From Escherichia phage PhiR63_2, in sequence record PV340574.1: DNA of 48,138 nt; one strand, written 5' to 3'. Made by a program: the position numbers and the translations under genes. A model generated the notes under the pieces. The model searched no databases. It was not told the DNA's origin and saw nothing but the letters and a program-made list of their open reading frames with translations. This document shows positions 39,301 through 39,828 of this stretch, piece by piece (the first letter of the stretch is position 1; every line of letters begins with the position of its first letter).

Positions 39301-39619
39301 GAAAAATGCGGATATCAGCGGTAACGTGAACGCGAACTCCGGGACGCTCAACAACGTCACGATTAATCAGAACTGTCGGATTCTGGGAAAACTGTCAGCT
39401 AACCAGATTGAAGGTGATATTGTCAAAACGGTGGGAAAAGCCTTTCCGAGAAATGGCAGTTATGCCAGCGGTACAATAACGGTCACTGTGTACGATGACC
39501 AGGCTTTTGACCGTCAGATAGTAGTCCCCCCGTTCTGTTTCGTGGGGGTAAGCATGAAAACTTCAACAGCAACAACCAACAGTCATACTGGTATTCAACC
39601 TGTAAGCTGCAGGTACTGA
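36347..39619 (+). CDS. J: Central tail fibre / host specificity protein gpJ, frameshifted near the 3' end
   Basis: 1090-aa ORF colinear with lambda gpJ; after the C6 tract at 39526-39531 the homologous reading continues in another frame to TGA at 39826-39828. Confidence 0.85.
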
Positions 39620-39828
39620 AGAACGGACAGGAAATCTTTCAGCAACCCGCGACGGATGTCAGCAGGGTATTTTCATCAGTCATTGATATGCCTGCCGGAC
39701 ACGGCCATGTCACCCTGACTTTCAATGTTTCTTCATATGGTGCTAATAACTGGACGCCAACGACCAGTATCAGCGACCTTCTTGTTGTTGTGATGAAGAA
39801 ATCTACAGCCGGTATCAGTATCAGTTGA
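39532..39828 (+). pseudogene. J: Displaced C-terminal segment of J (receptor-binding end) in the alternative frame
   Basis: Alternative frame reads ...[11 protein letters not shown]...[40 protein letters not shown]...[14 protein letters not shown], resembling the lambda J C-terminus as I recall it. Confidence 0.6.

Follow-up and report, generated by a model that had tools for sequence, protein, structure and literature searches.

A probable homopolymer consensus error splits the central tail fiber gene J of an icd-integrated, phage-21-type prophage

Introduction

In lambda-type tails, the receptor is bound by the C-terminal end of J, the central tail fiber or tip attachment protein. In phage lambda, this end is an Ig-like domain whose bottom loops enter the trimeric porin, and binding triggers opening of the tail (Ge & Wang 2024, PMC11101478); it is seen bound to LamB in the structures 8xcj and 8iyk. 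A second form of the domain is carried by A8 gpJ (PDB 9wca/9wcb), an engineered lambda chimera that delivers DNA via OmpC in a lamB-deleted host (Brodel et al. 2024, Nature, PMC11338833). The natural prophages closest to the locus described here are those of phage 21, PhiR57_1, and UTI89, all of which have in common with it the gene order L-K-I-J-stf, the terminator, the sitABCD cargo, and integration in icd.

Two described phenomena resemble what we find in J. The first is the stf gene of lambda PaPa, a lambdoid tail fiber gene that, like J in our sequence, is split into two open reading frames by a one-base deletion. That frameshift was reportedly verified by experiment, by Hendrix and Duda in 1992, and is said to affect a dispensable side fiber and to leave the phage viable, whereas the lesion considered here lies in the essential gene J and is probably not real. 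The second is technical: homopolymer under-calls in long-read bacterial assemblies create false pseudogenes, and short-read polishing is weak across repeats such as IS copies and multi-copy tail genes. The sequence analyzed here, referred to as the window, is the whole 48,138-nucleotide stretch of Escherichia phage PhiR63_2 (PV340574.1). A preliminary description of the window proposed that loss of a single C truncates the receptor-binding end of J, and that the cause is either a decaying prophage or a homopolymer error.

Results

Sequence comparison identifies the window as an icd-integrated lambdoid prophage of the phage 21 / UTI89 type, with the integrase at its left end and sitABCD followed by a duplicated icd 3' end at its right end. 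Identity to phage 21 (OL657228) is 99.9% over the right arm (20655-48138), and in 12.3 kb of left-arm sequence the UTI89 prophage is different at a single base. The prophage carries sitABCD, iss/bor, and a porin gene. Between ren and ninB lies a 705-bp IS200 element (12346-13050) encoding a Y1 transposase (PF01797, 125 bits), of which UTI89, phage 21, and PhiR57_1 all lack a copy. With this insertion, the early-right operon has undergone a real structural change and, given it, the prophage is a long-term resident in which decay is to be expected. A mosaic patch at 33000-38300, covering genes L, K, and I together with the end of H and the first half of J, resembles phage 21 and PhiR57_1 rather than UTI89, from which it is separated by ~110 clustered differences, mostly synonymous; a phage-21-like patch in combination with a UTI89-like left arm points to recombination among icd-integrated prophages.

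Gene J (36347-39619, plus strand) was assigned from the open reading frame list, Pfam matches, and identity to PhiR57_1. Its placement is lambda-type, after L, K, and I and before stf, and the Pfam domains PF24801, PF13550, PF24421, PF24489, and PF09327 (hub, FNIII, Ig, and tail-tip) follow one another in canonical order, well above their cut-offs. As sequenced, J is 1090 aa long; it is native up to residue 1062 (…DRQIVVPP), and residues 1063-1090 are 28 out-of-frame codons ending at a stop at 39617-39619. The break coincides with a C6 homopolymer (39526-39531, plus strand), the sole C-run of at least 6 inside J. Over 3483 nt, the gene is identical to the J of PhiR57_1 bar one missing C, and the J genes of phage 21 (2 bases different from the window, the tract aside), PhiR57_1, Lambda_2E9, and UTI89 each form a single open reading frame of 3483 nt / 1160 aa, with a C7 tract that codes for Val-Pro-Pro (GTC CCC CCC). 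The tract is C7 in all clean relatives. The genuine last 98 codons of J and their stop are thus displaced into the -1 frame on the plus strand (39532-39828, TGA at 39826-39828), as seen by translation, and beyond them stands an intrinsic terminator (39847-39876, plus strand), formed by a hairpin at 39847-39866 (GGGCGCC-AGAAAT-GGCGCC) and a T-run and present as a terminator in the phage 21 record OL657228. Coordinates, translation, and hairpin therefore bear out the layout given in the preliminary description, which had J ending at 39619, a J-like frame running from the C6 tract to 39828, and a strong terminator following. Its figures hold as well: the roughly 100 lost residues are 98, the full-length protein of about 1160 aa is 1160 aa both in the relatives and after repair by one C, and a single C separates the window from its relatives.

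The displaced segment carries most of the receptor-binding domain, so that the affected part is the one that the preliminary description had named. The Pfam family PF12421, [quoted passage not shown], matches the one-C-restored J at residues 1038-1160 with profile positions 17-135 of 135 and 132 bits; J as sequenced matches only at residues 1038-1079, with profile positions 17-58 of 135 and 41 bits. The break thus falls inside PF12421, about 70% of the Ig-like domain is displaced, and J as sequenced lacks a complete in-frame C-terminal copy. The downstream frame is homologous to J, as had been supposed: the last 279 residues of the repaired J align over their whole length with "A8 gpJ 713" (PDB 9wca, E = 1e-142), and the alignment with lambda J that had been proposed as a check gives a match to 8xcj and 8iyk with E about 1e-93. 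Lambda J has the same Ig-like C-terminal domain (PF12421) as the window J; the loop sequences differ, however, and the window J has an extra insertion, so that its receptor is likely different. A8 gpJ carries the same 14-residue insertion as the repaired J, and lambda is without it. As counted from the alignment, ~15% of the last 100 residues differ between A8 gpJ and the repaired J, and A8 gpJ, unlike the window J, is an engineered chimera. By analogy with A8 gpJ, the receptor of the window J is probably OmpC. It is a reasonable inference that a truly truncated J would fail to recognize its porin receptor and adsorption would stop, but only if the base is really missing. The prophage also carries its own porin gene (15919-17061, minus strand; annotated in relatives as OmpC/OmpD/NmpC) between Q and the lysis genes. 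One prophage pairs this gene with a J bearing an OmpC-type receptor-binding domain, and a link through superinfection exclusion or receptor masking is possible.

Near-identical assemblies allow the J tract to be compared within a single clone. The window's K gene (34974-35717, plus strand) has a private A227E/R229H allele that serves as a clone marker, and the exact K protein occurs on only three public contigs. One clone-mate, QOYV01000037.1 (L064), has 0 substitutions relative to the window over 12.2 kb (window 33522-45716) and differs at two sites only: the J tract, which is C7 rather than C6, and a site in stf. A second, CBCRXT010000056.1 (L063), has the same two differences plus Ns and one base. 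Both encode a J of 1160 aa, and the nearest complete relative (L029) is likewise C7; the lesion is thus shared by none of these clonal relatives and was, given C7 in the clone-mates, not inherited within the clone. The clone-mate contigs are drafts of 15-16 kb of short-read type, which makes this evidence assembly-level rather than read-level, and the comparison is limited to right-arm sites since the two private substitutions of the left arm are synonymous. At the level of assembled sequence, this clone test is the decisive line of evidence: the lesion is absent from independent assemblies of the same clone. The preliminary description had named reads with C7 as the observation that would overturn a truncated J, and the C7 of the clone-mates comes close to this at assembly level. 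Its two alternatives, a decaying prophage or a homopolymer error, were rightly framed; for the J lesion, the clone-mates with C7 and 0 substitutions support error and speak against inherited decay.

The second site that separates the window from its clone-mates lies in the side tail fiber gene stf (39887-41947, plus strand), which is intact and encodes 686 aa. At 40926-40933, all relatives (more than 20, including the zero-substitution clone-mate) read GGGGGAAGTC and the window reads GGGGAAGATC. This private -G/+A pair lies in a G-run (G5 to G4, plus an A), so that both differences from the clone-mate are indels at G/C runs. It replaces Glu-Val by Lys-Ile without shifting the frame and gives rise to a GATC site, and the exact Stf protein of the window is on record nowhere. 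The pair looks like a local consensus artifact, yet it is odd for a plain error.

The J lesion is also one of several of its kind. In the overlapping spanin genes Rz (18299-18700) and Rz1 (18519-18668), a tract that is C6 in UTI89 is C5 in the window (18645-18649, plus strand), in agreement with the preliminary description, which had seen the same lesion type there. The contraction puts Rz into the Rz1 frame, so that it ends at the Rz1 stop, and Rz1 into the third frame (…PPPTGRHR*). A further tract, C5 in UTI89 and PhiR57_1, is C4 in the window (15778-15781, plus strand), ~46 nt 3' of the Q stop. Q is QuuD-type, and the late promoter / Q-utilization site is expected at this place. Relative to the nearest relatives, the net indels of the window are all contractions of G/C runs (C7, C6, C5, and G5), against ~5 substitutions over the same ground as these four, and the contraction rate climbs with run length, from 2 of ~41 runs of 5, through 1 of 9 runs of 6, to the single C7 run (1/1). 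None of the A/T runs of the window shows a private contraction relative to the nearest relatives; a T9-to-T8 change at 20737 and an A3-to-A2 change at 34967 are common to phage 21 and represent natural variants. The same sites are hit elsewhere. The C5-to-C4 and G5 contractions recur in noisy assemblies (L022 and L012, the C5-to-C4 change in L022), the exact truncated Rz is found on 17 public contigs, many of them very noisy and several with shattered terminase and portal genes, and CP121347.1 has both the J and the Rz lesions plus three more run deletions.

In wider samples, C7 is the prevailing state of the J tract, and C6 recurs. Among the 60 best RefSeq matches, 58 have C7, and the two with C6 (C25 and EcN_Sk) are also the only exact 405-nt matches among 5,426 RefSeq complete E. 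coli genomes; their flanks differ from the window by 54 substitutions. C25 also has a K frameshift (G5 to G4). At its J end (equivalent to 39805-39816), it has lost one 6-bp unit of the tandem GTATCA GTATCA, an in-frame deletion of 2 residues. EcN_Sk differs from Nissle 1917 (CP022686) across 10.4 kb at this C only, and three other Nissle-derived assemblies among the best matches are C7. Metagenome contigs containing the tract were C7 in 20 of 20 cases, with neither C6 nor C8 among them.

The exact 1090-aa J occurs on at least 10 public contigs, whose flanks are UTI89-like, not window-like. Five of the eight carriers shown have 2-10 more homopolymer deletions within 10-15 kb; extra run deletions are seen in L009, L010, L012, L013, L016, and C25. 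The first five of these share A7-to-A6 and G6-to-G5 deletions that split sitC and sitA (equivalent to 43883-43889 and 45541-45546), which could mark one lineage with real frameshifts in cargo genes or systematic miscalls at the same sites. The truncated J and Rz of public contigs are no proof of an inherited real allele, since most carriers are full of homopolymer deletions and their backgrounds differ. In three other drafts (L011, L014, and L015), C6 is the sole indel, and two of these hardly differ from one another and lie near the Nissle type. These three suggest that genuine C6 alleles probably exist and that real slippage, too, has a hot spot at this tract.

Discussion

The missing C in J is probably a homopolymer consensus error, to which we assign a rough probability of 0.72 on the basis of the sequence comparisons above. 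On this reading, a true C7, the longest G/C homopolymer of the prophage, would have been under-called as C6 in the source assembly, and the two frames of J would exist only on paper, the gene for a 1160-aa J being intact. In reality, the prophage would have an ordinary central tail fiber with an Ig-like C-terminus of the OmpC-binding "A8" type. The source may have been a long-read or incompletely polished assembly; an unbroken run through an IS200 copy and multi-copy lambdoid tail genes suggests long reads. The window has four features in common with long-read under-calls: all net indels shorten a run, longer runs are hit more often, short-read assemblies of the clone lack the changes, and noisy assemblies show them again at the same sites. 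Their density is low by comparison, with 4 sites in 48 kb. Only 4 of ~190 G/C runs of at least 4 are hit, and no A/T runs, which is below what a crude long-read assembly would show and counts against an error, as do the three drafts with C6 as their sole indel and the IS200 insertion, a real lesion.

The main competing explanation, which we consider unlikely but worth weighing, is a genuine and very recent slipped-strand deletion from C7 to C6 that is private to this isolate. J would then be minus 98 residues of its receptor-binding domain and would end in 28 nonsense residues; tail assembly might still proceed, yet the particles would be unable to bind the porin receptor or to trigger ejection of DNA, and the prophage, with Rz/Rz1 frameshifted as well, would be defective and at the beginning of decay. 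As the longest G/C run, C7 is the expected first target of slippage, and the three drafts that are clean apart from C6, two of which hardly differ, provide what may be natural examples. The IS200 insertion shows that real lesions accumulate in this prophage, and the lost segment is most of PF12421. Against these points, the clone-mates with C7 and 0 substitutions in 12.2 kb would confine the event to one isolate, and the in-frame -G/+A pair within 5 bp in stf would add two further events, with no divergence time to accommodate them. The natural indel-to-substitution ratio is, as a rough figure, far from four contractions to ~5 substitutions, so that a real deletion would have to be one of four G/C-run contractions in a proportion that is hard to reach unless the host is a mismatch-repair mutator.

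Very improbable, in our estimate, is a broader version of real slippage, in which the C7 run is a recurrent off-switch hot spot and slippage time and again strips the OmpC-binding end from the central fiber of resident icd-integrated sitABCD prophages, as an early and possibly selected step of domestication. The three clean drafts and EcN_Sk would be instances of this, and the window isolate perhaps another.

Least credible of all is a functional switch. The tract could be phase-variable, so that J gains and loses its receptor-binding end, or ribosomes or RNA polymerase could slip there by -1; the frame of the C6 allele would be regained by such a shift on GUC CCC CCG, and the contraction recurs on several genetic backgrounds. 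As to run length, C6 is found in the three clean drafts and EcN_Sk, while the 20 metagenome contigs hold no C6, and C8 was seen nowhere. Against a switch, the run is not conserved (diverged alleles keep Pro-Pro as CCG CCA or C5), all clean relatives have one uninterrupted open reading frame, and the RNA at 39520-39620 folds with z = -0.61, lacking a downstream stimulator and pairing the run with a nearby G5.

At face value, the window sequence labels this prophage defective, with receptor binding and the spanin both gone. The clone-mate comparison indicates instead that the prophage is intact, phage-21-type, and probably inducible. Even a real lesion would amount to a common kind of slippage knockout in a gene that is well understood, and the main value of a homopolymer error as the preferred explanation is caution. 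The C7 tract of J and the C6 tract of Rz/Rz1 yield identical "truncated proteins" in many public assemblies, and tracts such as these can inflate the counts of pseudogenes and of "cryptic prophages".
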